Assembly: GCA_963575745.1 (NCBI GenBank)
Contig: CAUYUJ010000149.1
Coordinates: 1 to 64,000, forward strand
DNA from: Prorocentrum cordatum
Taxonomy: Eukaryota
Direction of reading: 5' to 3'
DNA: 64,000 nt
Below the pieces are notes generated by a model. That model did no database searches. It saw nothing but the letters and a program-made list of their open reading frames with translations, and was not told where the DNA came from. The position numbers were made by a program, and so were the translations under genes. This document shows positions 20,200 through 64,000 of the stretch, in pieces (position 1 is the stretch's first letter; each line of letters begins with the position of its first letter).

Positions 20200-21269
20200 A
20201 GGAACAATCTTGGGACTCTTGGGCCGTCTTGGAGCCCACTCAGGGCCTCGTAGGCCGTCTTGGAGGCTGCTTAGAGCCCAGAAGCGGATATGCTAGAAGT
20301 GCGCGCCTTCCTCCGAGGATGACACGATGTTGACCCTCTTTGGGTCCTCTGGAGGGCCTTCCGAAGCGCTTCTGGGGCGGGTTGCAAAACTCCTGGGCCG
20401 CGTTGAAGCCATCTTGGGCCATCTTAGAGCGTTCGCGGGCCGTCTCGGGGGCCTCGTCGGCCCTCTTCGGTGCCTCTTGGGGTCCTACCCTTTTTGCTCG
20501 CCGCAGTTCAGCGAGGGCAACAGCTCGGAGGAAAAACTCATCCAATGGCGGCTGCCTGCATAAACAGGCCTCTGCTGAGAAAGACTCCGATGGCTCAGAC
20601 CACACGGGGGGGTAATGTGAAGACCCCCGATGGCTCAGACAACACGGGGGGCGGATGAGAAGAACACCGATGGCTCAGAGCACACGGGGAGCCAATACCA
20701 CAGCAGGAGCCCGAAAGGCTTCGAAGCGGTTGCCTGCATAAGCGGGCCTCTGCTATTTCTATGTATATATGCAATTACATATGTGCATGCAGATGCATAA
20801 ACATATACATAAACATATACATATATATATATAGGCCTAGACGTAAACATTTGCATATGTATATGCATATTCATATACATATGCATATACATACGCACAT
20901 ACACATACGCTTACATATACATATACATATGCAGATGCATATGCATATGCATGTCACCAGAACCCACGCCACTGGAACCCCCCCCCCCCTCCCAGGCAAA
21001 TCAGGCGTTCTGAGGCGGTTTCTAAGGTAATCCAATGGTTTTAGAAGCAAATCTACGCCACCACAACCCCCCCACCCTCCCACGCCACCAGAACCCACGC
21101 CACCGGACCCCTTCCCTCCCCCCCCGCCACCAGAACCCACGCAACCGGACCCCCCCCCATCGCCCCCATCCTCCCCCTCCCCGGCAAAGCAACCCTGGTC
21201 ACCCCCACCCCCTGAAACTCACACGCCCGATCGGCGGATTTACATATAAATATACATACACATACACGT

Positions 21270-24200
21270 ATAAATACCTATACGACCACCCTTCGGGTGA
21301 TGAGGAAATTGTGTGTGGGGGAGAGAGAGAGAGAGAGAGAGAGAGAAGGGAGAACCAACATCTGACTCAATCGATCTCACCATCGATCTCACTCAACGGA
21401 ACACCACGGGACACCACGGGACACCACGGGACACTTGTCGATCTCACTATCGATCTCACTATCGATCTCACTCAACGGGACACCACGGGACACCACGGGA
21501 CACCGCGGGACACCGCGGAACACCTCTCGATCTCACTATCGGTCTCACTATCGATCTCACTATCAATCTCACTCAACGGGACACCATAGGACACCACGGG
21601 ACACCACGGGACACCTCGGGACACCACATCGATCTCAGTATCGATCTCACTATCGATCTCACTTTTAGGGACACCAAGGGACACCACGGGACACCACGGA
21701 AAACCTGTCGATCTCAGTATCGATCTCACTATCGATCTCACTGTTTGGGACGCCACGGGCCACCACGGAACACCTCGGGCATCACATCGATCTCAGCATC
21801 GATCTCACTATCGATCTCACAATCGATCTCACTCACCAGAACACCACGGGACACCACGGGACACCACAGGACACTTGTCGATCTCACTAGCGATCTCACT
21901 ATCGATCTCACTCAACGGGACATCACGGGATACCACGGGCCACCACGGGTCACCACGGGACACCGTATCGATCTCACTATCGACCTCACTTTTTGGGACA
22001 TCACGGGACACCACGGGACACCTCGGGCACCACATCGATCTCACTATCGATCTCACTATCGATCTCACTCACCGGGACACCACGGGACACCACAGGACAC
22101 CACGTGACACCCGGGACGCCCGGGACACCCGGGACACCGCCCAGCCCAACTGGGACACCTCCCAGCCACCGGCGGACGGGAAACGGACTTTCGCTCGTAT
22201 ACTGACACCTGGGACACCCGGGACACCGCCCGGCCCAACTGGGACACCTCCCAGCCACCGGCGGACGGGCAACCGGACTTTCGCTCCTACTTCGGCCTAG
22301 CTACAGGAGGATCACGCGCAGCTTTGCCTCGCCCGCACGCACGACACGAACACGAAACCGAAACCGCTTTCCCGGTGGGGGGTCTCCGTTTTACTGAGAT
22401 CTCACCCCCCAACCTCCTCTCTCTCTCTATATATATATGTATATACACACGAATACATGTACATATACATACCTGAACAACCACCCTTCGGGTGATAAGG
22501 AGGTTGTGGGGGGGGAGAGGAGGGGGAACCAACATCTGACTCAATCGATCTCACTATCGATCTCACTCAACCGGGCACCACGGGACACCACGGGACACCT
22601 GTCGATCTCACTGTCGATCTCACTATCGGTCTCACTCAACGGGATACCACGGGACACCACGGGCCACCACGGGCCACCACGGGACACCGCGGGACACCGC
22701 GGGACACCTCTCGATATCACTATCGGTCTCACTATTGGTCTCACTATCGATCTCACTATCGATCTCACTCAATGGGACACCTTAGACCTTAGGACACCAC
22801 GGGGCACCGAGGAACACCTGTCGATAGAACCATCGATCTCACTATCGATCTCACTCAATGGGACACCACGGGACACCACGGGCCACGGCGGGACACCTGT
22901 CGATCTCACGATCGATCCCACTATCGATCTCACTTTTTGGGACACCACGGGACACCTCGGGGCACCACATCGATCTCACTATCGGTCTCACTATCGATCT
23001 CACTCAACGGGACACCATAGGACACCACGGGTCACCACGGGACACCTGTCGGGACACCTGTCGATCGCACTGTCGATCTCACTATCGGTCTCACTCAACG
23101 GGACACCACGGGACACCACTGACTACCCACCAGACCACCCCAACCAACCCGAAGAACCCAATTTGACCCGAATTTCGGGTTGGGGGGGGGTACGGGTTCC
23201 ATCTGTTTTTTCGCCGCTCCCAGACCCCCCCACACTGGAAATGGAAGGCAGATTGAGGTCTTCGGGTTGGGTTGGGGTGGTTTGGTGGGTGGTGAACCAC
23301 GGGCCACCACGGGCCACCACGGGACACCGCAGGACACCTCTCGATCTCACTATCGATCTCACTATCGATTTCACTCAATGGGATACCTTAGGACACCACG
23401 GGGCACCGAGGGAAACCTGTCGATCTAAACATCGATCTCACGATCGATCTCACGCAACGAGACAACAAGGGACACCACGGGACACGGCGGGACACCTCTC
23501 GATCTCACTATCGGTCTCACTATCGATCTCACTCACGGGGACACCACGGGACACCACGGGACACCTCGGGGCACCACATCGATCTCACTAGGTCTCACTA
23601 CACTATCGATCTCACTCCACGGGACACCATAGGACACCACGGGACACCACGGGACACCTGTCGATCTCATTCTCGATCTCACTATCGATCTCACTTTTTG
23701 GGACACCACGGGACACCACAGGACACCTCGGGGCACCACATCGATCTCAATATCGATACCGGGACGCCCGGGACACCGGGGACACCCCGGACACCGCCTG
23801 GCCCAACCGGCCACCGGCGGACGGGAAAACGCCCGGGACACCCGGAACACCCGGGACACCGCCCAGCCCAACCGGCCACCGGCGGACAGGCACCCGGACT
23901 TGCGCAGCATCGCCTCGCCCGCACGCACGACACGAACACGCAACCGAGACCGATATCTCCGTTTCACTGCGATCTCACCCCCCAACCTCCGATACATATA
24001 CATACCTATACGACCATCCTTCGGGTGATAAGGAGGTTGTGGGGGGGGAGAGGGGGGAAACAACATATGACTCGATCGATCTCACTATCGATCTCACTCA
24101 ACGGGACACCACGGGACACCACGGGACACCACGGGACACCACGGGACACTTGTCGATCTCACTATCGATCTCACTATCGATCTCACTCAACGGGACACCA

Positions 24201-26510
24201 CGGGACACCACGGGCTACCACGGGACATCACGCGACTCCGCGGGACACCACATCGATCTCACTGTCGATCTCACGATCGATTTCACTCAACGGGACAACA
24301 CGGGACACCACGGGACACCTCGGGACACCTGTCGATCTCACTATCGATCTCATTTTCGATCTCACTCAGCGGGACACCACGGGACACCTCGGGGCACCAC
24401 ATCGATCTCAGTATCGATCTCACTATCGATCTCACTCAACGGGACACAACGGGACACCACGGGAGACCTGTCGATCTCACGATCGATCTCACTGTCGATC
24501 TCACTCAACGGGACACCACGGGACTCCACGGGACACCTCGGGGCACCACATCGATCTCAGTATCGATCTCACTATCGATCTCACGATCGATCTCACCCAA
24601 CGGGACACCACGGGACACCACGGGACACCACGGGACACCGCCGGGACACCGCGGGCCCAGTCCCAACCACCGGCGCACGGGACACCACGGGACACCACGG
24701 GACACCGGCGGGACACCCGGGCCCAGTCCCAGCCACCGGCGGACGGGCACCCAAACTTTCGCTCAAACTTCGGCCTAGCTACAGGCGGATCATGCGCATC
24801 TTCGCCTCGCCCGCACGCACGACACGAAAACGAAACCGAAACCGCTGTCCTGGGGGGGGGTCTCCGTTTTACTGCGATCTCACCCCCCAACCTCCGATAC
24901 ATACCTATACGACTGCCCTGCGAGCAATAAGGAGGTTCGGGGGGGATTGAGATCAAATGCCCACCCTGACTGACCTCCAGCCTGTCACCTTGGATAAGAT
25001 ATAATAGGTTGGATTGGAAGAGATGGATTGGACAAGATAAGATGGATTGGATTGGCCCGCCGTAGGCGCAGAAACAAATGAATTGATGGATTGTGTTGGA
25101 TGGATTGGATTGGGTGGGATAAGATAAGATGGGACAGGATGGGTTGGGTAATACAAGATGTATTGAATTGGACAAGATGGATTCGATAAGATAAGCTGGA
25201 TTGGATAAGAAAACCCGCCGCAGGCGCCGACATAAATGAATTTATGGATTTGGTTGGGTGGATCTCCGTTTTACCGCGATCTCACCGCCCAGCCTCCGAT
25301 ACCTATACGACCACCCTTCGGGTGATAAGGAGGTTGTGGGGGTGGGAGAGGGGGGGGAACCAACATCTGACTCAATCGATCTCACTATCGATCTCACTCA
25401 ACGGGACACCACGGGACACCACGGAGCACCTATCACTAACTATCGATCTCACTCAACGGGAAACCACGGGCCACCACGGGACACCACGGGACACCGCGGG
25501 ACACCTCTCGATCTCACTATCGGTCTCACTATCGATCTCACTCAACGGGACACCACGGGACACCACGGCAAACCTCGGGACACCACATCGATCTCACTAT
25601 CGATCTCACTCAACGGGGCACCACGGGACACCGAGGGACACCTCGGTGCACCATTTCGATCTCAGTATCGATATCACTATCGATCTCACTCAACGGGACA
25701 CCACGGGACACCACGGGGCACCTGTCGATCTCAATGTCGATCTCACTATCGGTCTCACTCAACGGGACACCATGGGACACCACGGGCCACCACGGGCCAC
25801 CACGGGACACCGCGGGACACCTCTCGATCGCACTATCGGTCTCACTATCGATCTCAATATCGGTCTCACTCAATGGGACACCGCGGGCCACCACGGGCCA
25901 CCGAGGGACACCTGTCGATCTAACCATCGATCTCAGTATCGATCTCACTCAACGAGACACCACGGGACACCACGGGACACGGCGGGACACCTGTCGATGT
26001 CACTATCGATCTCACTTTTTGGGACACCACTGGACACCACGGGACACCTCGGGGCACCAGTTCGATCTCACGATCGGCCTCACTATCGATCTCACTTTTT
26101 GGGACACCACTGGACACCACGGGACACCACGGGACACCTGTCGATGTCATTATCGATATCACTATCGATCTCACTTTTTGGGACACCACGGGACACCACA
26201 GGACACCTCGGGGCACCACATCGATCTCAATATCGATACCGGGACGCCCGGGACACCCTGGACACCCAGGACACCGCATGGCCGAACCGGCCACCGGCGG
26301 ACGGGAAAACGCCCGGGACACCCGGTACACCCGGGACACCGCCCGGCCCAAACCAGCCACCAGCGGACGGGCACCCGGACTTTCGCTCCTAGCTACAAGC
26401 AGATCACGCGCAGCATCGCCTCGCCCGCACGCACGACACGAACACGAAACCGAAGCCGACTTCCTGGTGGGGGGGGGGTCTCCGTTTCACTGCAATTTCA
26501 CCCCCCAACA
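21270..26510. repeat. Higher-order satellite of GGGACACCAC and TCGATCTCACTA monomers, punctuated by a recurring unique block
   Basis: Hundreds of monomers. The block ...CGCCCGCACGCACGACACGAA...ACCACCCTTCGGGTGAT...AACATCTGACTCAATCG recurs near 21.3, 22.3-22.5, 23.9-24.0, 24.8-25.3 and 26.4 kb. Confidence 0.9.
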
Positions 26511-28395: not shown

Positions 28396-29078
28396 GCAGG
28401 TCTGCTGGGATGGCCGAGAGAGTTGTTGTAGCATGTAGCACATATAGTCAACGTGAGAGGTACTAACTCATACGATAATATGTTGCGATTAACAACTTAA
28501 CACTATACATATACATACTTAGTAGCCAACTTAATAAGTTAAATAAGTCGAGGTGTTTGTTCGGGCGTCCTGTTTTTGCCCTGGCGCCACGATGTTTGCT
28601 TGGCGTCGCCTGCTGGTCGGACCTGCGTTTTTTTGCTCTGTGCTTGTTTTCTGGGCGCGTTTGCTTGATGAAGACGCTGCGCGTTGTTCAGGTGCCACCT
28701 AAAAAAAACAACTTATCCTCCTCTTCCTCCTCCTCCTCCTCCCCCTCCCCCCCGCCGCCCCCCCTGCTCCTCATCATAACCCCTCTTCGGCGGATTACCC
28801 GCCTTCCCTCCTCTCTTTTGCATGCGCTGGCGGATCAACCGTTTTCTCTTTCGGCGGATCAACCGCTTTCTCTTTCATTTCTCCCATCTTCTCGGCGGGT
28901 CAAACGCCTCATTCTGCGGATCAGCCGCGCCCCCCTTTCTTTGCGGATAAACCGCACGCCCCCCCTCTCTCGAGTCCGCGGATCAGCCGCATTCCTTTCT
29001 CCCTCGGCGGATCACTCGCCTCCTTCCTCTTCTCCGCCCCGAGCGCCCGCAGCCTTTTTATCGAAGACGCCTACGGCG

Positions 29079-30988
29079 AATCACCGCCGCCCCCTGCCCT
29101 TTCGGAAGCGCCGATGCGGCCGACTGCTGTGGCCAGAGGTCTGCCAAGTTATTGGGCCATATGTTCCCCGAATCGGTCTTTACAGCCTTCGGGGAACACG
29201 TGGGGGAGGACGGGGAGGAGAGGAGAGATAGGAAGGGGGGGAATGGAGGAGGAGGTCTCTTGAGTGCCTTGTTGGCTACTCTGGGTTTATATTGGGCCAC
29301 ATGTGCGGTCTTGGAAGCATCTTGGGGGCCTCTTTGGATGCCTTGCGGCCTTCCTGTTCTGCCTGACGCCGTCTGGGCTGGGTTGGGGGCCTCTCTGTGG
29401 CCTCATTTGGGTTTATCGTGGCCGTAGACGCCAGCGTGGCCATCTTGGGCCGTCTTGGGTGCATCTTGGAGCCATCTTACCCGTCTTGGAGGCCATTTTG
29501 GCCGTCTTGGAGGCATCTTGGAGGCCATCTTGGGCCATCTTGGCCGTCTTGGAGGCCATCTTGGGCGTCTTGGACGCCTCTTGGGCCGCCTTGAGGCCTT
29601 CTTGGGGGCCTCTTGGGCCGTCATGGGGCCATCTTGGAGGCCTCTTGGGTGCTGTTGGGGCGATGTTGGGGACCTCTTGGGCCGTCTTGGGCTGTCGGAG
29701 AGCTGAAAAGAATAACATGCCAAAATCCTTCAAAAACCTGAGGAAAATCAATGATTTTAACCTATTCGGGCCTTCCTGGAGGGCGTCTTGGAGGGCTCTT
29801 GGGCCGTCTTGGAAGCCTTTTGCGGGCCTTTTGGGCCGTCTTACACCATCTTGAGGCCATCTTGGGCCGTCTTGGGTGCATCTTGGAGCCACCTTACCCG
29901 TCTGGGAGGCCATCTTGGCCGTCTTGGAGGCATCTTGGAGGCCATCTTGGGCCATCTTGGCCGTCTTGGAGGCCATCTTGGGCGTCTTGGAGGCCTCTTG
30001 GGCCGTCTTGAGGCCCTCTTGGGGCCTTCTTGGGGGCCTCTTGGGCCGTCATGGGGCCATCTTGGAGGCCTCTTGGGTGCTGTTGGGGCGATGTTGGGGA
30101 CCTCATGGGCCGTCTGGGGCCGTCGGAGAGCTGAAAAGAAGAACATGCCAAAATCCTTCAAAAACCTGAGGAAAATCAATGATTTTAACCTATTCGGGCC
30201 TTCCTGGAGGGCGTCTTGGAGGGCTCTTGGGCCGTCTTGGAGGCCTTTTGCGGGCCTTTTGGGCCGTCTTAGACCATCTTGAGGCCATCTTGGACCGTCT
30301 TGGGTGCATCTTGGAGCCATCTTACCCGTGGGAGGCATCTTGGAGGCCATCTTGGGCCATCTTGGCCGTCTTGGAGGCCATCTTGGGCGTCTTGGAGGCC
30401 TCTTGGGCCGTCTTGAGGCCCTCTTGGGGCCTTCTTGGGGGCCTCTTGGGCCGTCATGGGGCCATCTTGGAGGCCTCTTGGGTGCTGTTGGGGCGATGTT
30501 GGGGACCTCTTGGGCCGTCTTGGGCCGTCGGAGAGCTGAAAAGAAGAACATGCCAAAATCCTTCAAAAACCTATAGAAAATCAATGATTTTAACCTATTC
30601 GGGCCTTCCTGGAGGGCGTCTTGGAGGGCTCTTGGGCCGTCTTGGAAGCCTTTTGCGGGCCTTTTGGGCCGTCTTAGACCATCTTGAGGCCATCTTGGGC
30701 CGTCTTGGGTGCATCTTGGAGCCATCTTACCCGTCTTGGAGGCCATCTTGGCCGTCTTGGAGGCATCTTGGAGGCCATCTTGGGCCATCTTGGCCGTCTT
30801 GGAGGCCATCTTGGGCCAAGTTGGGGCAACAAAGGCATTGACAGACGGATTTTGGGAAAATTACGGGTGGCCGGCGGGACGGGCCGAAGCCCACTGGGGA
30901 GTTCTTCTAGAAAAAGAACCAAAACCAAAACCTGAATCGTCCAGCGCGCCGTGCACCCCTGTGGCAAGACCACAGGGGGCGGCGGATT
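29079..30988. mobile_element. Non-autonomous TIR element built of GGCCATCTTGG/GGCCGTCTTGG repeats with three ~400-430-bp internal units
   Basis: AATCACCGCCGCCCCCTG (29079-29096) versus CAGGGGGCGGCGGATT (30973-30988). The unit GAGAGCTGAAAAGAA.AACATGCCAAAATCC occurs at about 29698, 30126 and 30531. Confidence 0.65.
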
Positions 30989-31055
30989 GCAGCCTTGTCG
31001 GCCCGAGCTGCCGCGGGGCCGCGGCGCGTCTTGCTGCTGCACTGCCTGCCCGACA

Positions 31056-32502
31056 ATGGCGCTCCAGCAGGAACTCCTTCAGCGCGCCGAGGCGACGGGC
31101 CCCTTACTGCGCGCTGCCAAGGGCCAGGGAGAGGCCGCGTGGAGGCAGGCGTCGAGTACACAGGCTGCTCGGCTGGTCGAGCTCGTCGGACTGGTGCGCA
31201 CGCAGGGCCACTTGCTCATTTGCCTCGCGGGTTTGGCACAGCAAGACAGCTTCGCGCCTGCCGACGCCCAGCTGTTGCAGAACGCCTTGGCCACGGGACG
31301 TGGAAGTCGCAAAGCTTCGAGCGTTTCCCGTACTTCTTGAGTGGTGAAGTGTGGGCCGTGCTCAGCGACCCCAGCGGGGACGTCTTGCACAAGGCTCGCA
31401 CCGTTCTGTCGTTTCTCTCGTCGAAGCTGGGCCTCACGAGCCCGTCAGAAGGCACCTACGCGCATTTGACGGCCCTCGCGACGATCTGCGTAGAGGGTGC
31501 CCCGACGGCCCGCAGCATGAGCCCCACTTCTTGAAAGACACTTTTGACCACATCAAGACGGTGTGGAAAGGCTTGGTCAAGGCAGAGCCCTTGGAGAAGA
31601 TGGTCTCGCTCCCCGCTGACCCCAACGCGTTCCAAGCTGCGTTCCCCGCCACGTGGGTCGCTGCGTACGGCGACGGTGGCCCTGCAAGCATCGGAGTGTC
31701 TTACGTCGATGTCTCTGTGGTGGCTAAGGCGTTCAAGTGGCGGGACAGGCAAACTGGCCCCGCCTCGTCGCCCATGTTGCAGGCTATGCAGCAGGTGATG
31801 GGGCAGACGCTGCAGCACCCTCAGCAAGAGAGGCTCGCGAACGGTTCGATGTTGACGTTCACACAGAAGCAGCCGCGCAGCCTCGCTGGCGTGCAATCGG
31901 CGGCGACGTCGGCCGCAGGGCAGCTCGCGTTGACGGACTTCCAGCATCAGCAGCAGCAGCAGCTGCAGCAACAGCAGCAGATGCAGCTGCAGCAGCAACA
32001 AGACAACCACAACCTGCAGCTGCAGGTCAAGCAGCTCCAGGAGCAGCTGCAGGAGCAGCTGCAGCAGCAGCAGCAGCAGCCGCCGCCGCAGCCTCAGCCC
32101 CAGCTCGCCCTCGGGGACGGCCACTCGGCGGATGCCTCTGGGGGGGCTGCGACGACGAAAAAGGCGAAGAAGATTGACTCGGTGGAAGCCGCGGCAATGC
32201 ACGTGCACGCTGCCATGCAGCAGGAGAAGGAGACCAAGGCCCAGGCGAAGGCCAAGGCCCAGCCCAAGGCCAAGACAAAGACGAAGCGCGTGAAGAAGCC
32301 AGCGGCGGCCTTTGTTGGCAAGCCTGCGGTGGTGACCAAAATCAGCGTCGAGAACGCGCGCAGCCAGTGCGTCGCGCACTGCGGGAGGGGCCCTGGCTCG
32401 ACCAAGGCGTTCAAGTGGGGCCCGAACACAGGCTACACGAAGGAGACGGCCAAGAAGGCTGCCGAGCAATGGATCAAGAATCGGATTTGCATCGGCAGCT
32501 GA
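31056..32502 (+). pseudogene. Element cargo ORF-A (unknown family; poly-Q and K/A-rich tail), two frameshifts
   Basis: MALQQELLQ... / KSQSFERFPYFLSGEVW...KLGLTSPSEGTY / ...SLPADPNAF...WVAAYGDGGP...KKPAA...KISVENARSQCVAHCGRGPGSTKAFKW. Homologous to the ORF at 40.3-42.1 kb. Confidence 0.65.
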
Positions 32503-33096
32503 GGGGGTGACGGCTACGCGTAGCTGTCGGCACGAAGTGCCAGCGTGCATGTCAGTGCAGCCGTGCCGACGGGTGGCCGTCGGTATGAGCACTTTGCCAT
32601 GTCGTGAGTAATGCTACGGATGGCATCGGTTTTCAGTTTCTCTGTCTGGTGCGCGTTGCGCGCGCTCGTGATGGAGCTCGTTCTTCGGTGAACTCTTTTG
32701 GGCCTCTATTCGCACCACTGCTTTGCGAGAAAAGGCGTTTGGGGGAGAAAAAAAAAACCACAAAAAAAACTGATCAACTGCTATCAGCGGACCACCCGCT
32801 ACGTGCCATGTTGCGTCAGGTCGTCGTTCGTCGATTGCGTTTGCGTGTTGCGGCAGTGGCAGGGAGGTATGAGCAGGCATCTGGAGGGATGGCATGGTCA
32901 GAGTTCAGAGGGATGAGAACGAGGAAGGATCGGAGACCTGAGATTTGTATTGGTTGAGTCCGGTGGGCGGCGATGGCGTCGGGGTTGAGTTGTGCATTTC
33001 GAGGCGGGCTGGGGGGGTAGGGGCGTTCATCTGTTTTCGATGCCATAGCCGTTTGGGCCCAGGGTTGCGCGCTCGCGACGGGCTCGCAGGGGCGCC

Positions 33097-34362
33097 ATGG
33101 CGGCGCCGAAGAAGTCTGCCTTCGAAGACCTCCAGAGCTTCTTCGAAGAGGCCGACGATGCGTTCGATAAGATGGACGTCGAACGGACGCAAATGATCAG
33201 CTGCCTCGGGAAGGCGCTCGAGGAATCTGGCACCGTGGAGCCTGTCCGCGAGAGCCCGTTGGAGGAGCCTGCAGTTTCGAGCTCCTCTGCGTCGGCGACT
33301 CTGGAGGTGGAGGTCGGCAGTTCGGAGGTCGGCCGCACTCAGGTCGACTATGCTGCTCTGGGGCGCGCTGTCGACGAAGTTCTGGATGACAAGGCAGGCG
33401 AAGCGGAGGATCAGGTCCTTCCAGAAGGCGCGGCAGGACGCGTCCAGCAGTTCATGAACGCGGATCCTGACTTCGCTCGGATTGCCCTGCTCATGGCAAT
33501 GGACCCGCTCGCCGTGGACTGGAACGATCCCGCCGTCATCAACGTCGAGAAGACGTTGGTCTTGGAGTTCAAGTGCCACAAGAAGTTCAAGGCACGGGGC
33601 CCTCCTGGCCTGCTCCAGGGCGGGCCCAAGGAGTGGAGGGGCCAAGCCTGGAGGGCGAAGAGCGGTCGGTGGGGCTCCCGCGGCGGGCGCAGCATGCGGT
33701 TGGCAGAGTTCCAGGCGAAGTTCGGTAAGGAGCGAGGCACGCAAGCATGCCTGGAGGACGAGGGCCGACGCCGCAGTTTGCGGCAAAAAACCTGCGTTGC
33801 GAAGTTCGGCAAGGAGCGAGGCGCCGAGGCCTTCCAGGAGGACGAGGCCGAGCGCTCGAGCAATTGCAAGGGGATCGCGCGCATGATGGCGGTAGGCCGC
33901 CCAAAGTCCCAGCAACCCATTTTGGTGCCGCCGATGTTCGCGCCTCCAGCTTGCAAGGCATGCCTGCCGACGCCCAAGATGATGCCGCAAACCGCCCTGC
34001 CGATCGCGCGCACCGCGGACGCAGGAAAGGGCTCGGGCGAGCGGGCTGCCAAGGGCGAGAGCAAGCGCGCCAGGGAGGGCAAGGGCGATGGCGAGCAATG
34101 CAAGGGCGCCTACAAAGACGCGGACTATGGCAAGGGCAGGGGCGCGGATAAGGACAAAGGCAAGGGCGCCCACAAGGACGCGGACAACGGCAAGGGCGCC
34201 CACAAGGACGCGGCCAAGAGCAAGGGCAAGCACGGCAAGGGTTTCCTCTCCCCCACGCCCAAGCGTCCAGCGCCTCGGACGCCGTCGCCTGCTCGCAGGC
34301 CCAAGCGGCGGGCGACGAATCCACAGGGCGCCAGCGAGGGCAGGCCGTTGCCTTTTTTGTGA
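33097..34362 (+). CDS. Element cargo ORF-B, 421 aa, intact; RGPP..GGP..WRGQ.WR..SGRW..RGG motif and basic KG-rich repeat tail
   Basis: Long non-satellite ORF with a GCCATGG start; SL-like motif at 33043-33063. Confidence 0.7.
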   Translation: MAAPKKSAFEDLQSFFEEADDAFDKMDVERTQMISCLGKALEESGTVEPVRESPLEEPAVSSSSASATLEVEVGSSEVGRTQVDYAALGRAVDEVLDDKAGEAEDQVLPEGAAGRVQQFMNADPDFARIALLMAMDPLAVDWNDPAVINVEKTLVLEFKCHKKFKARGPPGLLQGGPKEWRGQAWRAKSGRWGSRGGRSMRLAEFQAKFGKERGTQACLEDEGRRRSLRQKTCVAKFGKERGAEAFQEDEAERSSNCKGIARMMAVGRPKSQQPILVPPMFAPPACKACLPTPKMMPQTALPIARTADAGKGSGERAAKGESKRAREGKGDGEQCKGAYKDADYGKGRGADKDKGKGAHKDADNGKGAHKDAAKSKGKHGKGFLSPTPKRPAPRTPSPARRPKRRATNPQGASEGRPLPFL

Positions 34363-34581
34363 CGCGCACTGTGGCGCTCGGAAAAGAAGATGAGTCCACT
34401 TCGGCGGCTCAACCGCCATGGCGGTTTATCCGCCTGCGTGCGCACGTGTGTCAGCGCGCGCGCGCCCAGCATTTCGTCGCACGTAGTTCGAACATGCAGC
34501 CGCGCAGCTTTTGTGCCGCATAGGCGTCTTGGCTCAAAACGCGCTTTGCAAATCGCATGTCGCCCCCTTCTGCCCCTCTCC

Positions 34582-34860
34582 ATGTCTGCAGCTGCGTCGG
34601 CCACGGCCGCCGAGATTGCGGGTGCAGTGCAAGCGGATGACGATGCGAGTCCGACGTGGACTATGCGGGGTGGCAAGTGCCCCTTTAGCTCGCAGTGCAG
34701 CAAGCGCAGCTCGACCGTCAAGAACTGCAACTCGCACGAGGAGGCCGTAGCGTCGGTGATCCGTCATTTGGAAACTTCACCTTGCCACGGGCTCGAGCGG
34801 CACGAGGCCGAAATGGCCGTGAAGGGCCCTATCCCCACCCCCTCCCCTCGCCCCCCCTCC
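34582..34860 (+). CDS. Element cargo ORF-C, small protein with a possible Zn finger (CPFSSQC...HLETSPCH); 3' end uncertain
   Basis: ATG at 34582, preceded by SL-like GCATAGGCGTCTTGGCTCAAA at 34518-34538. Confidence 0.45.
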
Positions 34861-34996
34861 TCCTCTTCCTGGCGTTGCTGCTGCTGCTCCACCATCTCAT
34901 CATCGCAGCATTTTCAGCTTCGGGTGGTCGGCGCGCCGTCCCGCGCCCCACTTCCCCTCCCCCGATTCGCCGCCTCCCCGCTCGCCTTTGTCGGCC

Positions 34997-36969
34997 ATGG
35001 AGCCACTCGCGAAACGACGGAGGATCCTCGATATGCTGGGCAGGCGGAACTTCAGCGAGAGAGACGTCGCAGCGGCGCTTGCCGCGCTGGGGGGCGATGA
35101 AGCGGCGTCTCGGCGAGATGCGCGGGAGTGCGTGGATACGTTCACAGAGGACGTTCTCGTTCAGCTGGCCCTGCAAAAACGAGGCGGCGACGCCTTTGAC
35201 CATTGCCAAGTATCAGCTTCTCCTCCCGACGTGCATTGTACAGTGCGCGGGCTTCAGGGAGGAGTTTGAGAATGCAGCGGCGAAGTCGCCAAATAGTTTT
35301 GACAGGCCGTGGCGCCTGGCGCTCTACATAGATGACGTAGTACCTGGCGATGTTTTGGGATTGAACAACAAGCGAAAGGCCACGTGCTGGTATATCGGCA
35401 TACTTGAGATGGGGCGCTATCTGCGACGCGAAGAGGCATGGCTGCCCGTTGGCGTGCTGCGCGCCACCACTGCTAAAGATGTTCAGGGAGGCTTCCCAGC
35501 CGCGGCCAGGGCGCTCCTGCGTTCCCTCCTGCTCGGGACCGACAGCGCGTCCACGGCTGGAGTCAGCGTGTCGCGCGGTGGCCAGCCAAGGATTTTGCAT
35601 TTCGGCTTCAGCGTTGGATCGGGGACGAAGTTGCGACGAAAGCTTTCTTCGATACGAAAGGTTTTGGCGGCATTAAGTGTTGTTCCATATCCTGCAAGAA
35701 CGTAGTGAAGCTGAGCAAAGATGGCGTGGCATATTCGCTGGCCAATCATCAGACTGACACGTACCTGGTCGATGTCTCGTGCTCTGACCCCTCGCAGCTC
35801 GACCCGATGACAGACGAGGGCGTCTGGCGCACGCGCGACATCCTGGATGAGGTGCGCAGGCGTGGGGGGCCGTTGAAAACGCTACAGACAACGACGGGGT
35901 TCCCTTCGAATGAGCACGGCGTCCTGGCCGACAGGGATCTCCGCCCGCACGCGCTCCCGCACTCTTGCCTTCTGCGCGATTGCATGCACGTGTACTTGGC
36001 AGGCGGCATCGTAAATATTGAGCTTGGTTTGCTTTTGAATGCGATTCACGAGTGCACCCCTGGGTTTTCCTTCCGCGTGCTCAAGACGCTCGCTGAGGCA
36101 GACTGGCACTGGAGCGCTGGAGGGTTAACCAGGAGCGAGTTCGCTGAGCTATTCAACGAGTCTCGGGAGAAGGCGTGGAAATCAGGTGGTACGTTTCGCG
36201 CGGGGGCATCTGAACTATTGTCTGCATACCCGTTCATCCGATATTTTCTCGCTGAGCACGTCCCCGTGCATAAGGTCCAGCTTGAGCGCCAGAGCTACTT
36301 TCGTCTGCGCGAAGTTCTGGGCAGCATCGTCGAGGCAAAGCACTATTCCACGCCATTGGCGATGAAAGATACCATGCAGAGCGCAGCTGGCCGTTTTCTT
36401 GACGCGCACAAGGCTGCGTACCGCGTCGATGCCACCGTCCCAAAACACCATTATCAGTGGCACGCTGTGTCAGGCCAGGAGGACGATATATTTCGCGATT
36501 GCTTTGTTCACGAAAGAACAAGATCGTGAAGCAATCAATGACTCACATCGCAAACACGGCAGCGTTCGAGGAGAGTTCGGTCCAGCAGCTTCTCGCCAAG
36601 GTGTTTCCATCGATGGACAAAGTCAGGATGACCGAATTGTGCGAGCCTGTGGCTGTGAGCCAGCCGCTGTCCGACAAGTGTGGCCAGCTTTGCGTCGTGT
36701 CCAAGCAGATGAGATGGCGGGGCTTGCTGCCCAGAGTTGGCAGCGGGGTTTTCGTTCAAAACGCGGCAGTTGAGATTCAAGCGTGCGCGTCCGTAGGTGG
36801 CGTTCTAGCGCTGATCGTGGGAACTCTTGCGCTGGTGCGCCGTGAGCCTCTCGGCGGGTATTCTATCTGGGCTAAAACGGGACAGACCAAGCTCCTTTTG
36901 CCCGAGGGGGCGCGCAAGGCGACTGGCTGCTTCCTCAAGAGCGACAACACGCTTGCGGTGATCCATTGA
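34997..36969 (+). pseudogene. Transposase 1, CACTA/EnSpm-Plavaka-like DDE; about three frameshifts
   Basis: WRLALYIDDVVPGD...GDE...KGFGGIKCCSISCKN...RDCMH...GASELL...PKHHYQWH...DCFVHERKNK: the order D, D + Cys cluster, DxxH, KxHxxxH, FxxER is typical of this transposase group. Confidence 0.7.
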
Positions 36970-54814: not shown

Positions 54815-58348
<3,534 letters not shown>

Positions 58349-59122: not shown

Positions 59123-59987
59123 GTACCCTTGCCCGCGCCTCCGCCCCCTCACTCTTATCCGTAAGCGCGGGGCGCTGCGTGTGTATATATGTATATTCTA
59201 CGTGTCAGGCGCCACCGAGACATGCGTTTCCGAGCTGCGTCCAACTTCGGCGACGAGGCTGAGCTCGGGAAGGGGGGAGCCAAATCACGAAACCGACGAA
59301 CCCAACATTAACTGCAGACAAGCACAGACGACGACGCTAACGACGTCGACGACAGGGACGACGACGATGGACGATGGAAGCGAACACAAAAACGACGACG
59401 ATTACGACGACGGGTGACGACGAAGACAACCACCACGACGACGTTGACGGACGACATTCCGCCTCCTTCCTCCTTCATCGTCCCCGCATTCCCCGACATC
59501 CCCGAGACAGTTAGAGTAGCCAGAGAAGTTATGAAAAGTTAAGAACAAGTTAAGGGACAACTGAGAACAACTAATGAAAGGATACGAGAAGTTATGAAAT
59601 GATGTGAAAAGTTATGACAAGTTATGAAAAGTTGGGCAGGTTAGCTTGCAACTACACCGCAAATATAACACAAATGCAACACCCGAGCCCCAATTGCACT
59701 CTAACTTCTGTGTAAGTCTGGCCCAACTCATGTATACATCGCCTAACCCCAGATTCTGCAAAGTGGGCCCCTCCCCGTCCGGGCCCCCCCGGCGTGGAAC
59801 CCCCCGGCCCAGGCCCCCCCGGTCTAGACCCCCGGCCCAGACCCCCCCCTCCTTGAGACTCCAAGGTCGGTTAATTACGCGGGGTCGAATTATTTTACGC
59901 TTAACAACATAATTTTCTGCGGGTCGATCAATTAATAATGCGCAAGCCAAAAAATTAATCGACCCGAACTTTTCACGTTAAACTGGC

Positions 59988-62063
59988 TCAACTGGGAGGG
60001 GCCTCGCGGCGTTCCTTCCACAGCGCGCGCGCAATCGGCCGGCCACAAAACTTCGCGACGCATGCCGGCGAGAACGCACTCGCGGATCTCTTCTGACCCC
60101 TCCTTCGGCCAAATGCAGCTACAGATCCACCGAGACCCTCGCCCCTGTAGTTCCAGCGCTTCGCTGGCTCGCCGCCTTCCATGCAGAGCTCTAGAAACAT
60201 ACGCATTCTAGGCTTGACTATAAAATGCGCTGGGGGCGCGTCTTCCAAAGCGACCGCCTGCGCAGTGCATTTCATTGAACGCTCGCGATGAATGTCCACG
60301 CCAAACGGGCGGCTGCCAGACAGCGCGTCGCAAGACCGACTCAAGCCCGCCATCGCAGCGCGAACAGGCGATTCTACAGCTGCCCGCTGGTCGGCGCCAC
60401 CCCGACGATTCAGGAATGCATCCGCGATCTCCATCGCCCATGGAACCGCGTGCCTGAGCATCCCCGCGCCGCCCCTCATCTTAGCCGTCTTCGCCTTCCT
60501 CCCTTCACGACGCCACGCGTCAGCTTCGGCAAGCGGCTGGTCTTCTCACCTGGCGGCTGCCTGTCGTAGAACGCCAGCAAATGACGATGCAGCGTCAGCG
60601 CGCGGGCTTTCTGGGCAGCGTAAGCAACCTTTCTGCGCGTCACGAGATACCAGACCAAAGCGCCGACGCAGTCAGCCGCCACTCCCAGGTCAACGGCGCG
60701 CAGCCAGTCTAACTTCAGCAACTTGTCGCTTGCAAACGGCACTGGGAGGAGAGGGCACACAGTCGCGCCCGAAGCGATGATCTCCCTAATGATGTCCGAC
60801 CATGTGCGGCGATGCGTTCCCCGCGGCGCGTCTCTCCCAGTCTGCGACTTCACCTGAACGCGGGCTTCTGAAAGCGGTGGCGCCTCCTCTTCCTCAACCT
60901 CATTATCCTCCTTCTGTTCCCCCTGCTCCTCCATGCGCTCCTCCTTCTCCCGTTTTTCCTCCTCCTGCTCCTCTTCCTCCTTCTCCTCCTGCCCCTCCCC
61001 CCCCAGCCCCCCCCCCCCCCCCCTTCCTTCCTCTTCCCCTTCCCGCCCTTCCCCCTGCCTGCGGCAGGGGCCGCAAGACGACGACCCCCTGCGAGATGGG
61101 CGTTTTCACCCATAAGTCCCCCCTCCCGCTGGGGGATTTTCATCCACAAGCTCCCCTCCAAGAGGTGATATTGATCCATAAGTTTCCGCGGTGATTCGGG
61201 CGCCCACGGGCCTCGAACTTCTCGATGCTGCACAGGAAGCAAACCTCCTCGCCCTGCCAGCCAGGTAGTTTGAGCACCTCCTTCATCATCTCCCAGCCCC
61301 CCTTGATCTGGCAAAGCACCCCACCAATCGGTAAAGAACCCCGCTGCCGCTTCCTCCAGGCGTCTGTCGATTCGACAAGAGGGAGCCCGCCGCGCCGCGC
61401 CGTCGGCCGACGCTTCGCAGCAAGATGAATGAAACTCCATTGCACCACGGCAAAGATATCATCAAACGTGTTGGGGCCAACATGCTCTTTGAGGAACGCA
61501 GCGAGCGGCGCCCGCGTGTTTTTTTCCAGCTGCCTGCAGCCCCTGGCAACATGATGCTGACGATGTCTGCGGTCATTCATCGGCCCCAGAAGCAGGGGGC
61601 GCCGTCCTGCCACGCGCCCAGGGCCACGAGATCGTCGCAAACGCTCTCAACCCTCGCATTCTGCACGCGGCGCCAAGACACGCCGTCGAGATTCGATGTC
61701 TCCAGAAGCGCCCGCCGATCGCCAAAATGATGAAGCTTAGACAGGATCTCGCGCGGAAGCAGCATCGCAACATCCATCAGCTGCTCTGTTTCAGACTTGG
61801 GGGCCCAGCCCCTCACCTTGCAGCGATGCAGAGGAGGCCACCCCTCCTTGAAGAATTGGCGCCTGAATCTCCTGGATGCGTTTTTTCATGCCCGACGCGG
61901 TCCCAGAGGTCTGCAGGTCGGCACCTCCTGTCGCAGACGCAGAGACGGCGTCATTGATCAACTGAGCACCGCGCTGCCCGCTGATCACGCTGCTGCTGAT
62001 TAGGTCCTCCACGTTCGCTCTCAGCCGCCTCTGCGGTGGCAACTGCAGCATCTCGCAAGGCAA
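59988..62063 (-). pseudogene. Transposase 3, a more divergent member of the same superfamily; heavily decayed
   Basis: LVALGAWQDGAP...QIKGGWEM...CFLC...LDWLRAVDLGV...MRGGAGMLRH...VKPRMRMFLEL...WNYRGEG preserves the same motif order with catalytic positions mutated. Stops, frameshifts and an insert at about 60.85-61.2 kb. Confidence 0.6.
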
Positions 62064-62347
62064 CTCGCGCTTGGGAAGCGCGCCGACGGCCCTCGAGCCC
62101 CCCCGCGAGAGGCGAGTGCGACTACGGATATGCCCTGAGCCAATGATACGGAAGCGAACGGATGAGCATTTCTCTGCACCGCGCCCCTCCTGGAGGGGAT
62201 CCTTCAGTCCCGCGGCTCCGCCCCCTCAGCCGCGTGACCTTCCGCCCCCCCTCCGCTCCGCCCTCCGCCCACCACCGCCGTCTGTCCAACGCCTGCCCTG
62301 CTCTCCTGCAATGCCTCCATTCGCGCCGCGGCCACTGATGTCCGACG

Positions 62348-62408
<61 letters not shown>

Positions 62409-62674
62409 CCCCACCCGCACCCCGCCCTGCGGCGAGGGGGTTTGTTTCGAACCGGGGCGGGCAGAGAAACGCGCGGCCTCTCACGAGGGGGACCTCTGCA
62501 AGAAAGAATAGTGGCGCGTCATGTTTTTTCCATGCGTCGACGCGCAGGCTGCAATGAACGCAATAGCTGTGTCGGGCGAGGCAGTACTTCCCACCCTGCA
62601 TATGGAAGTAACTATGGATATGTATCGAGGCCCACAGATCAATCGAGGAACTTCTTGAAGCGCTTGAGCAACAG

Positions 62675-63560
62675 CTAAACTCCCTCGCACGCGTGCCCCA
62701 TCGCGCTGCGGGCGGCAACGGCCTCGCACTTCAGCTTCACGCACATATCCGCATCCTTGCCGACAGAAGAAACGCTGACAATTTTGGCAATGAGGATCTC
62801 CATGTTCGCCTCGTGGCCATCCGCATTGACCACGCACTTCTTGCATTCAACCGCCCAGTTCTGGAACTGAGCGCGGCCCGCTTGATCCTGATCTCCAGCC
62901 TGCGCGAGCAACTGGTTCTTCGTGTGTTTCAACTCCTCGAGCTGCTTCTAATACTTGCAGAGCGTTGATGAAGGTGCGCGAATCCTTCTCCACAAGCTTC
63001 TCATCGCCCATGTTGCGCACCAGGAAGTACCATTGCTTTCAAAGAGGCCTCTTCTTTTCATCTTCCATTACAGGCTATTCTTCTGCGGTGCCATGCTCAG
63101 CGCTATTCTCCTCCCACCAGTCCTGCACGAAGGCCACGGCCTCCTCGATGTTCTCAAAATCTCCGATGCTGAAGTCATTCGATGCCGGCGCCTGCGATGC
63201 GTTCTGGTACCCCCTCTTGCCAGACCAGGCGCGCACCTCCTCGTTCGTGCAAGTCTCTTCGAAGGTGGACATCCAATCTAGCGTCTTCTCCTTATCGCTT
63301 GCGAAGCTCTGCAAGCAGCGCCTCCGATCGCTTGGGTCTTTCATCCCGTTCCACATGGCCTGCGCTGCTTTGGCTGTCCCTGCAGCGGACGTAGTTTTGC
63401 CGTCGGCGCCCTTCCTCTCGGACTGGCAGCGGAGCCGCGCCCTCATTTTGTCGGCCTCGACCTTGTCGAGCCCGCTGCCCTTCGGAGCAGCCTTCGCTTT
63501 CTGTGCCGCTGCGGGGCCCGGCTTGCCATCGGTCTTCTTCTTCAGGGCCACGCTGCACAC
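62675..63560 (-). pseudogene. Cargo ORF of element 3 (unknown, basic N-terminus), frameshifted
   Basis: ALKKKTDGKPG...DKMRARLRCQ...LDWMSTFEE...GYQNASQ, continuing to LKHTKNQLLAQ...ECKKCVVNADGHEANMEILIAK. Co-oriented and directly upstream of transposase 3. Confidence 0.5.
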
Positions 63561-64000
63561 TGGCGCGATGAGAGCGCCCATCAGGAGCAGAGGAGCGACG
63601 CCGGCAGGGCCGCCCACGGCTGCCGCGAGCGCAAACACACCCAGCACTTGCACTCACAAAAGCTTCGGCAAGCCCGATCGCCTCGCAGCCTCAACACCTG
63701 CTAACGAATTGCAAGTTCATCGTCGCCGTCGTCGGCGTCGCCGAGGCATCCCCTCAAAGAGGGGTTCGCTTCTCTCCCCCCCAAGGGGTTCGACGCCCTC
63801 GCGGTCGTCTCCTTTCCCTCCCAGAAGGGTCGTTTCATCGCTCATGGCGGCGCGGGCTCCTCCACAAAGGGGCAACGCGTTCCCTCAAAAAGGAATCCAT
63901 CTCCTCGCACTCGTTCTCGCAAGGGCCCCCCCCCCTCGGCAAGGGGCCCGCCATGGCTGCGCCGCGCCCCGCCCCCCTTCAGGAATGAGCACCTGCCCCC

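Follow-up and report, generated by a model that had tools for sequence, protein, structure and literature searches.

Point mutations that wear down transposable elements (TEs) in one direction are known as C>T decay, the outcome of repeat-induced point mutation (RIP), methyl-cytosine deamination or APOBEC activity. Whether an element can decay as densely the opposite way, with a dinucleotide context of its own, is the question raised by a transposase-like gene in a 64,000 nt stretch of the Prorocentrum cordatum genome (contig CAUYUJ010000149.1, positions 1 to 64,000, forward strand), here called the window. Such decay would indicate a different chemistry, for which dinoflagellates offer an obvious candidate in 5-hydroxymethyluracil (5hmU), a base that stands in for thymine on a massive scale and the role of which is now being tied to transposon silencing. 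A preliminary description of the gene had listed seven codons altered by A>G or T>C at presumed conserved sites, one of them judged by supposed paralogs, and had added mismatches in spliced-leader relics as further signs of a T>C-biased inactivation. No description of T>C/A>G-biased TE decay in dinoflagellates was found in the open-access literature searched.

The relic gene and its family

At 60021-62078 lies the dead remnant of a transposase gene in two parts, the product of which has a predicted RAG1/Transib fold (Table 1). The copy is damaged by one stop and three frameshifts, two of the latter being changes in the length of A6/A7 runs. The relatives are likewise broken into two reading frames at the intron-like stretch. 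A tblastn search with the relic frames (E ≤ 1e-3) found no second copy within the window, and scans of metagenome contigs and viral contigs gave no DNA relatives. Inverted repeats of at least 16 nt flanking the relic were absent from 59300-62900, where the decay of the copy makes them hard to see.

Neither the relic pieces nor 10 full-length relatives matched Pfam at E ≤ 1, Plavaka/KDZ/CACTA (PF18759) included, and a sequence search of PDB chains gave no match for the family; a language-model lead of 0.91 pointed to a Plavaka cluster. For 66 other long frames, Pfam returned nothing but below-threshold RNase H and a TFIIA low-complexity match. An AlphaFold model of the full-length relative P0058 (alignment A5; pLDDT 86.6, pTM 0.86) had 45 PDB matches in Foldseek at E ≤ 0.001. 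Among the matches listed at this threshold were RAG1 chains, one BbRAGL and one HzTransib, with E values from 1.8e-7 (best) to 7.6e-4, TM of 0.33-0.53 and, where RAG1 was aligned by structure, 12-14% identity. As judged from this model, which is of the relative P0058 and not of the relic, the family is one of DDE transposases with a RAG1/Transib-like fold. It differs from RAG1, Transib and the RAG-like proteins in having no sequence-level match in Pfam or PDB, and no terminal inverted repeats were found for the relic. Invariant positions of the family alignment include two Asp, one Glu, several His and a CxxC pair. A candidate acidic triad is made up of D140, D242 and E498 (P0058 numbering), none of which varies among 25 members; the relic retains its first Asp and its Glu, the second Asp now being Gly.

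Table 1 Features of the window. Codons are written in the reading direction of the relic.
Feature	Position	Strand	Remarks
Transposase-like relic ('transposase 3')	60021..62078	-	Coding block 1, intron-like stretch, coding block 2; frameshift-aware protein-to-DNA alignment to P0002, P0004, P0016, P0020; tblastn
Coding block 1	61209..62078	-	N-terminal half; carries WQDG and KGGW; 2 frameshifts
Frameshifts of block 1	near 61886; near 61525	-	A6 run; A7 run
In-frame stop TGA	61577..61579	-	C>G; Ser in relatives
Intron-like stretch	60878..61208	-	Low complexity, G-rich on coding strand; alignment ends; P0004 read-through tail
Coding block 2	60021..60877	-	C-terminal half; 1 frameshift near 60499
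GGC (Gly) in KGGW	61296..61298	-	Asp in relatives and wider family (RGDW), invariant
CGC (Arg) in DWLR	60698..60700	-	Ancestral His (DWLH); no variation among 25 full-length members
AGA-ATG-CGT (R-M-R) in KPRMR	60201..60209	-	Ancestral KPKMH; two A>G changes
AGA codon of KPRMR	60209-60207	-	K expected
CGT codon of KPRMR	60203-60201	-	H expected
GGC-GAG-GGT-CTC (G-E-G-L) in YRGEGL	60132..60143	-	Ancestral YRDEDF; A>G twice, T>C once
Satellite	20900..26500	+	Units of ~79 bp; neutral control
Second transposase-like relic	34997..36966	+	Carries DCMH; 80-87% identical to P0171
DCMH	35978	+	In a gene named earlier as paralog
Third relic	~54815-58155	-	
DWMH	56628	-	In a gene named earlier as paralog

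The seven codons (DWL-CGC, KP-AGA-M-CGT, YR-GGC-E-GGT-CTC and KG-GGC-W) exist exactly as the preliminary description gave them, and the ancestral residues that it had proposed (H, K, H, D, D, F and D) are those of the close relatives (58-72% identity), which carry KGDW, DWLH, KPKMH and YRDEDF, motifs that the wider family also conserves. R or G is thus not native at these sites, all close relatives having D, H, K or F instead. D242, H323, K475 and H477 (P0058 numbering) are invariant in the 25 full-length members; in YRDEDF the two Asp and the Phe are consensus residues only, not invariant, among the same members, and the invariant Glu is retained in the relic. The Asp lost in KGGW is probably the second catalytic Asp of the transposase. 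Over the whole relic, His has become Arg at 9/12 conserved sites and Asp has become Gly at 7/23. An independent database protein, P0021, has four derived states in common with the relic, among them the Arg of KPKMR (formerly His) and the Gly of YRDxG (formerly Asp).

Direction and size of the bias

Ancestral states were taken from protein relatives, with no DNA of those relatives, and for this reason only non-synonymous changes were polarised. Among 572 aligned codons, 343 were polarisable and 229 were dropped, the relatives being in disagreement or gapped there. The polarised set consisted of 273 unchanged codons, 60 with an unambiguous single-base change, 4 ambiguous and 6 with multi-base changes. 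The 60 derived single-base changes were A>G in 31 cases and T>C in 11, with 3 G>A, a single C>T and 14 transversions making up the rest. Transitions from A/T to G/C therefore stand at 42:4 against the reverse (42/46; binomial p = 1.5e-10 versus equal per-opportunity rates). Per opportunity, A>G ran at 0.187, T>C at 0.072 and each remaining class at 0-0.014, with an A/T>G/C transition rate ratio of 12.2 (95% CI 4.4-47). The direction read earlier from single codons holds gene-wide, and the spectrum is neither symmetric nor dominated by C>T.

The counts were stable to the choice of relatives. The N-terminal half polarised with an outgroup gave 17:0, the C-terminal subsets that need distant outgroups gave 9:0 and 10:2, and enlarging the closest relative group left the counts unchanged except for one extra T>C. 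A weaker bias (8:4, unpolarised) was obtained in an out-of-frame comparison of 54 codons, the one comparison in the relic to reach beyond non-synonymous changes.

Sequence context and strand

Thymine after G (GT/AC) was mutated at 24/83 opportunities versus 18/225 elsewhere, an odds ratio of 4.7 (p = 8e-6). A>G changes had a 3' C at 18/43 opportunities and a 3' G at 3/50. Creation of CpG (CA>CG) was considered as the context and rejected, as it is asymmetric (5' C of A 13/43; 3' G of T 3/61) whereas GT/AC is symmetric.

The same preference is visible in the composition of the relic, where the observed/expected ratios are 0.60 for GpT, 0.66 for ApC and 1.26 for GpC, versus 0.77, 0.90 and 0.98 for the window as a whole. 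CpG has an observed/expected ratio of 1.01 in the relic, which indicates no CpG decay there. An index of GpC over GpT and ApC peaks at 60001-62000 (1.99 versus a window mean of 1.21, sd 0.38) and is also raised at 61.5-64 kb and 28.5-36 kb, so that the footprint extends beyond the relic.

On the coding strand A>G outnumbers T>C by 31 to 11 (p = 0.005), an asymmetry that fits the chromosome plus strand about equally well as the coding strand. Strand-coordinated clusters were absent from the relic, A>G and T>C being interspersed in 22 runs versus 17.2 expected.

Other lineages and other elements of the window

Changes derived in other lineages of the family numbered 5 A/T>G/C transitions versus 6 in reverse, which differs from the 42:4 of the relic (Fisher p = 0.0019), the relatives serving as controls being copies under selection and possibly from other species. 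Variants inside one cluster of relatives stood at 9:10. The A/T>G/C bias is derived in the lineage of the relic copy and is not a general trait of the family.

The satellite offers a crude neutral control, read from sub-motif matches with common variants excluded; its rare variants comprise 7 A/T>G/C transitions (0.0055 per site) versus 17 in reverse (0.0101 per site). The second relic, the best named relative of which is from Prorocentrum cordatum, shows the bias again, at 10:2 when polarised (rate ratio 6, p = 0.016) and 38:14 when unpolarised (p = 4e-4). The evidence for the bias comprises two relics of one window.

Two further supports of the preliminary description fell away. The genes with DCMH and DWMH, named there as paralogs, fall in the family of the other two relics, which has no detectable homology to that of the present relic (hhalign probability 0.4%), and for this reason the paralog comparison is an invalid basis for ancestral states. 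The spliced-leader relics, offered as a second line of evidence, are at chance level: the 21-mer had zero matches at ≤3 mismatches, the 15-mer had 3 versus 1.79 expected (30 of 100 shuffles reach 3), the 12-mer had 3 versus 3.54 expected, and no spliced-leader match adjoins the transposase 3 relic.

Origin of the bias

On balance it seems probable that a DNA-level, context-dependent A:T>G:C mutational pressure eroded a relic copy that was not under selection. The copy would have been freed from selection and then worn down chiefly by A:T>G:C transitions, with loss of the invariant second Asp, the two Asp beside the invariant Glu, 9/12 conserved His and other residues. Thymine, or a modified thymine, may mispair with guanine, preferring GT/AC, and in silent repeats the T:G mismatch would become established as C:G. 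We infer that mutation, and not biased fixation, is at work, and that dead or silenced repeats feel the pressure more strongly than other DNA. The direction seen may reflect a dedicated process of TE inactivation or a general mutation or fixation bias on whatever DNA of this G+C-rich genome is unconstrained.

A link with 5hmU is chemically plausible. In the available sections of the sources, dinoflagellate repeats are enriched in 5hmU and the base silences TEs (PMC11572971, PMC11071213), and 5-formyluracil (5fU), the oxidation product of 5hmU, pairs with G and gives T-to-C changes (PMC6100112). By an oxidised-thymine route, 5hmU on repeats would pass to 5fU, which would pair with G. The base-resolution map of 5hmU in B. 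minutum, as far as the available text describes it, shows no sequence motif (PMC11071213), so the GT preference is not predicted by this route. Oxidised thymine (5hmU to 5fU) is accordingly put forward as the chemical cause in a tentative and rather doubtful way. Unlikely, as we see it, is the broader idea of a heritable 'reverse-RIP' footprint, in which repeat-targeted thymine hydroxylation would steadily turn T to C, preferentially in GT, whether through 5hmU itself, through over-oxidation to 5fU or because modified T:G mispairs are poorly repaired. If it were true, transposase genes would have their codons for Asp, His, Lys and Asn destroyed, and the repeats, perhaps the genome, would move to high G+C.

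The main rival to a context-dependent mutational pressure is GC-biased gene conversion, or a genome-wide G+C drive, acting on every unconstrained site. Codon positions 1 and 2 of the relic, formerly kept A/T-rich by selection, would now be relaxing, with nothing specific to TEs. The relic is like such a case, or like the relaxation of a pseudogene, in its net A/T>G/C change at unselected sites of a G+C-rich genome. The genome of P. cordatum has 59.7% G+C (coding 65.9%), the highest of the dinoflagellates compared in the available part of the source (PMC10666404), so that a genome-wide push to G+C exists in that lineage. A/T>G/C transversions in the relic also exceed the reverse (4:1), the second, not detectably related relic leans in the same direction, and the dinucleotide index is elevated over wide stretches. 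What counts against this rival is first the size of the bias. A rate ratio of 12 (CI 4.4-47) implies an equilibrium G+C of 0.82-0.98, versus 60% observed in the window and 71% at third positions of the relic. The spectrum departs from the rate ratio that goes with an equilibrium G+C of 0.62 (1.63; p = 9e-7) and from a ratio of 3 (p = 0.0014), the third-position G+C of 0.71 implying 2.45; a ratio of 5 is only marginally incompatible (p = 0.05), and the upper range plausible for a fixation bias overlaps the confidence interval. Gene conversion moreover does not predict a GT/AC preference (odds ratio 4.7) or a difference between the strands (p = 0.005), the surplus is almost wholly one of transitions (42:4 versus 4:1 for transversions, the numbers being small), and the satellite 35 kb away leans opposite (7:17). 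With local composition exceeded and the nearby satellite free of the effect, a G+C drive is a possible but doubtful explanation.

Miscalling during sequencing or assembly is improbable as the source of the changes. Either 5hmU or a poor long-read consensus might produce T>C miscalls together with errors of homopolymer length, and two of the three frameshifts do lie in A6/A7 runs, the window holds very long homopolymers, and context-dependent, strand-skewed transitions resemble systematic miscalling. The four derived states of P0021 were, however, obtained independently, the in-frame stop and the 14 transversions are of another type, and the satellite of the same window is without a T>C surplus. 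The one published P. cordatum assembly, a possible source of the window, was built, as described in the available part of the paper, from Illumina and PacBio data (PMC10666404).

An origin by RNA editing and retro-copying, in which a transcript hyper-edited by A-to-I conversion was reverse-transcribed and inserted, would give A>G on the coding strand as the biggest class, as is seen (31/60), and wide RNA editing and many retro-copies are reported for dinoflagellates in the available text of the sources (PMC10666404, PMC12014239). It is nonetheless very improbable, as the intron-like stretch is still there, no spliced-leader relic exceeds chance, and the 11 T>C lie singly amid A>G on the same strand with no coordinated clusters. 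The fold of the element is that of a cut-and-paste DNA transposase, and the neighbours of the A>G changes (3' C 18/43, 3' G 3/50) are unlike the preference of ADAR.

Chance, hand-picking of codons or residues native to a subfamily carry a negligible probability: D, H, K and F codons do mostly change by A>G or T>C, seven of seven being expected about 1 time in 32 under symmetric transitions, but these readings are ruled out by the opportunity-normalised, whole-gene p of 1.5e-10 and by the uniform D, H, K and F of the relatives.

Comparison with known systems

The relic is like a product of RIP in that dense directional transitions wreck TE genes with few indels and leave both a dinucleotide context and a ratio footprint. 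It is unlike RIP, as set out in the available sections of PMC3318451, in its A>G/T>C changes (42:4), its raised G+C and its GT/AC context, RIP being C>T/G>A with G+C lowered.

In the footprints of APOBEC and ADAR, too, a dead mobile-element copy has diverged from its family mostly by one class of transition. Those of ADAR are A>G changes made on RNA, in strand-coordinated clusters. APOBEC footprints are described, in the available part of the source, as arising on retroelement cDNA, also in strand-coordinated clusters (PMC4866542). The relic is unlike both in its predicted DNA-transposase fold, its intron-like stretch, its interspersed A>G and T>C and its 3' C preference.

The marking of dinoflagellate TEs by 5hmU shares with the proposed mutational pressure a repeat-targeted modification of thymine and a T-to-C product, as given in the available sections of the papers (PMC11572971, PMC11071213, PMC6100112). 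It differs in that those sections cover silencing and mapping and not heritable mutation (PMC11572971, PMC11071213). If the 5hmU link holds, the relic would be the first evolutionary read-out of the modification and would suggest how Prorocentrum-type genomes came by their unusually high G+C. If biased gene conversion is at work instead, the locus would be a clean case of rapid G+C drive at relaxed codon positions. The ratio of GpC over GpT and ApC, highest over the relic itself, would under the 5hmU link serve as a simple index to find silenced DNA.

Structure and family of the relic gene

Database proteins 58–72% identical to the relic match across most of 62078–60021 on the minus strand, and the copy is dead yet its structure is well kept (see table). 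The two coding blocks are held apart by 331 nt, G-rich on the coding strand and with a C-rich tract at 60990–61025, which probably represent an intron, because the relatives are likewise divided into N-terminal and C-terminal reading frames at this position and one of them, P0004, continues through the stretch and enters block 2 in the wrong frame.

Features of the transposase relic
Feature	Position	Strand	Basis or remark
Coding block 1	62078-61209	-	Frameshift-aware protein-to-DNA alignment
Coding block 2	60877-60021	-	Frameshift-aware protein-to-DNA alignment
Frameshift	near 61886	-	Length change in homopolymer run (A6/A7 runs at 61886 and 61525)
Frameshift	near 61525	-	Length change in homopolymer run (A6/A7 runs at 61886 and 61525)
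Frameshift	near 60499	-	Third of three frameshifts
In-frame stop TGA	61579-61577	-	Single stop in the gene

The family occurs widely across the protein collections searched but carries no annotation there. HMMER, run exhaustively on the last 185 residues, gave 277 representative clusters at E<=0.001, while Pfam gave no family match for the relic pieces or ten full-length relatives, and a PDB sequence search matched no chain. Full-length members have approximately 540–600 residues, and in 25 of them the Asp of WxDG, the Asp of RGDW, the CxxC pair, DWLH, the Lys and His of KPKxH, and the Tyr, Arg and Glu of YRDEDF are invariant. The AlphaFold model of one full-length member (pLDDT 86.6) retrieved the RAG1 core, the amphioxus RAG-like transposase and the Transib transposase in Foldseek (E 1.8e-7 to 7.6e-4, TM 0.33–0.53), and a language-model search led to Plavaka and RAG1 clusters. 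By this predicted structure the family is a DDE enzyme with a RAG1/Transib-like fold, which bears out the label transposase used in the preliminary description. The clusters (P0058 and 276 others) have a confident RAG1/Transib-like fold prediction and no Pfam model, and lie mostly on short contigs of public assemblies. One 62-aa member of the closest relative cluster, P0176, is labelled as coming from a prasinophyte transcriptome collection, which could mean cross-contamination or transcription of the family. A search around the relic gave no terminal inverted repeats.

Substitution spectrum of the relic

The preliminary description had singled out seven codons (KG-GGC-W, DWL-CGC, KP-AGA-M-CGT and YR-GGC-E-GGT-CTC) as decayed from A/T to G/C. 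All are present in the window sequence, and close relatives carry exactly the residues it had assumed as ancestral, namely KGDW, DWLH, KPKMH and YRDEDF. Its basis for these residues was weaker than the inference itself, the supposed paralogs, one with DCMH at 35978 on the plus strand and one with DWMH at 56628 on the minus strand, belonging to a family without detectable relation to the relic (hhalign probability 0.4%).

The 572 relic codons were aligned to the relatives and kept only where independent groups agreed (three groups, one an outgroup, for the N-terminal half and two for the C-terminal half), leaving 343 polarised codons and discarding 229; the changes thus polarised are non-synonymous only and inferred from protein relatives. 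The codon was unchanged in 273 cases, ambiguous in four, and required more than one base change in six, while 60 codons had an unambiguous single-base derived change: 31 A>G, 11 T>C, three G>A, one C>T and 14 transversions. Per non-synonymous opportunity in the inferred ancestral codons, the rates were 0.187 for A>G, 0.072 for T>C and 0–0.014 for each other class. The A/T>G/C direction, rather than C>T, therefore holds gene-wide, with 42:4 transitions (A/T>G/C to G/C>A/T, here and below) and a per-opportunity ratio of 12.2 (95% interval 4.4–47), and the spectrum polarised against protein relatives is neither symmetric nor C>T-dominated. The binomial test gave p = 1.5e-10 for equal rates, p = 9e-7 for a rate ratio of 1.63 (equilibrium G+C 0.62), p = 0.0014 for a ratio of 3 (higher than the 2.45 that follows from the third-position G+C of the relic, 0.71), and p = 0.05 for a ratio of 5.

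Subsets of sites gave 17:0 in the N-terminal half with the outgroup included, 25:4 in the C-terminal half, 9:0 for C-terminal sites with distant-outgroup support and 13:2 for sites younger than the split from the sister copy; use of a larger closest relative group changed the counts by just one extra T>C. Conserved His became Arg in 9 of 12 cases and Asp became Gly in 7 of 23, with opposite-direction transitions in 1 of 26 Arg and none of 33 Gly. For the remaining codon positions, 54 codons read out of frame in P0004 gave 8:4, which is unpolarised and weaker.

Spliced-leader relics with mismatches in the same direction had also been claimed, and these did not hold up: with up to three mismatches allowed, the 21-mer leader is nowhere in the window; two shorter cores each matched three times, in line with chance (1.79 and 3.54 expected), and none of these matches adjoins the relic. 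In two of them the mismatch to the leader is a T>C or an A>G change, which is anecdotal. The direction itself is real and specific to the lineage of the relic, so that this part of the earlier interpretation stands and the spliced-leader part does not.

Controls and a second relic

Derived changes in other lineages of the family comprised five A/T>G/C transitions and six reverse, and variants inside one relative cluster were 9:10 (Fisher's test versus the 42:4 of the relic, p = 0.0019). Judged from these sequences, the bias is not a family trait; the lineage controls speak to this point only, because the copies are under selection and maybe in other species. In the satellite at 20.9–26.5 kb, rare variants included 7 A/T>G/C transitions (0.0055 per site) and 17 reverse (0.0101 per site), a crude control based on ungapped matches of two sub-motifs, common variants being left out as probably propagated. 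Over 21300–26300 the satellite units are about 79 bp, built of these sub-motifs (10 and 12 nt), with higher-order variants.

The evidence for the bias comes from two relics in one window. The second (34997–36966, plus strand) is transposase-like but not detectably related to the first, has about three frame breaks and is 80–87% identical to a 597-aa protein labelled Prorocentrum cordatum, which makes a Prorocentrum-like dinoflagellate the probable source of the window. Polarised with two outgroups it gave 10:2 (rate ratio 6, p = 0.016), and unpolarised 38:14 (p = 4e-4); the lineage of the named protein itself gave 2:2. The gene model of that protein omits a conserved stretch, 36377–36570, present in other relatives.

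Neighbour context and strand

In the relic, T was mutated at 24 of 83 sites with a 5' G versus 18 of 225 with other neighbours (odds ratio 4.7, p = 8e-6); viewed from the A strand, the values were 18 of 43 with a 3' C and 3 of 50 with a 3' G. The GT/AC>GC/GC preference is symmetric across both strands, whereas a CpG-creating preference is not. Independently of alignment, observed/expected values in the relic were 0.60 for GpT, 0.66 for ApC and 1.26 for GpC, against 0.77, 0.90 and 0.98 in the whole window. The CpG value of the relic, 1.01, indicates no methylation-type decay. A sliding GpC/(GpT,ApC) index peaks at 60001–62000 (1.99; window mean 1.21, sd 0.38) and is also raised, to 1.7–1.9, at 61.5–64 kb and 28.5–36 kb, so the signature is not limited to the relic. 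The intervals 61500–64000 and 28500–36000 carry long frames without Pfam match, e.g. 63078–63653 (minus) and 33049–34359 (plus).

On the relic coding strand A>G exceeds T>C (31 versus 11, p = 0.005 after normalisation), and in the second relic, on the opposite strand, the order flips (T>C 7, A>G 3). Because of this reversal the pooled asymmetry agrees about equally with the chromosome plus strand (p = 0.005) and with the coding strand (p = 0.018). A>G and T>C are intermixed along the relic (22 runs versus 17.2 expected), with no strand-coordinated clusters of change.

Origin of the bias

Neither chance nor native residues nor a family trait accounts for the pattern in the relic. The reading somewhat favoured here is a mutational pressure on dead or silent DNA, which would act at the DNA level, site by site over time, on sequence released from selection, because the changes are almost all transitions, neighbour-dependent, strand-skewed and interspersed.

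The rival to be taken seriously, although on balance unlikely, is biased gene conversion or a general push towards G+C. The closest named species is reported in PMC10666404 to have the highest G+C among the dinoflagellate genomes compared, relaxed first and second codon positions would shift towards G+C, and the few transversions lean likewise (4:1), but the size of the excess, the GT/AC context, the strand skew and the satellite control all oppose it. An assembly or base-calling artefact, for which the frameshifts in homopolymer runs might speak, is very improbable: the satellite is clean, and P0021, a decayed relative and an independent database protein, shares four derived states with the relic, two of them A>G, its own changes being of the ordinary kind. 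These shared states speak for a signal that is, in part at least, genuine sequence and that built up stepwise. RNA editing followed by retro-copying is scarcely credible: the intron-like stretch is still in place, no spliced-leader relic turned up, T>C changes are interspersed, and the predicted fold is that of a DNA transposase.

Mutational pressure of this kind would proceed through single T:G (or A:C) mispairs that become fixed as C:G. A candidate chemical route starts from 5-hydroxymethyluracil (5hmU), which replaces a large share of thymine in dinoflagellates (62.8% for a Prorocentrum species, cited in PMC11071213) and is described as concentrated on repeats, where it silences transposons (PMC11572971, PMC11071213). 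Oxidation turns 5hmU into 5-formyluracil, which ionises and pairs with G, the basis of T-to-C mapping of 5hmU (PMC6100112), so that 5hmU on repeats might be converted to 5-formyluracil and thence lead to T-to-C change. This route, one form of the broader mutational-pressure reading, is plausible in dinoflagellates but doubtful; base-resolution mapping in another species, as reported in PMC11071213, showed no sequence motif. Directional point-mutation decay of mobile elements is of a known kind, but here it runs in the reverse direction; no description of such A/T>G/C-biased decay was found in the open-access literature searched.

Other features of the window

A third relic (54815–58155, minus strand), which holds the DWMH at 56628, shares only about 34% identity with one of the second relic's relatives and is broken by a (CT)n tract at approximately 55970–56230. 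Microsatellites are many, with (CCT)n, (CT)n and (ATAC)n at 26.4–27.4 kb, and a poly-C tract of about 75 nt lies at 62345–62428. The reading frame 16960–18357 (plus strand) matches RNase H below threshold (E 2.7e-4, 21.6 bits versus a cutoff of 25.8) and may be a retroelement remnant.
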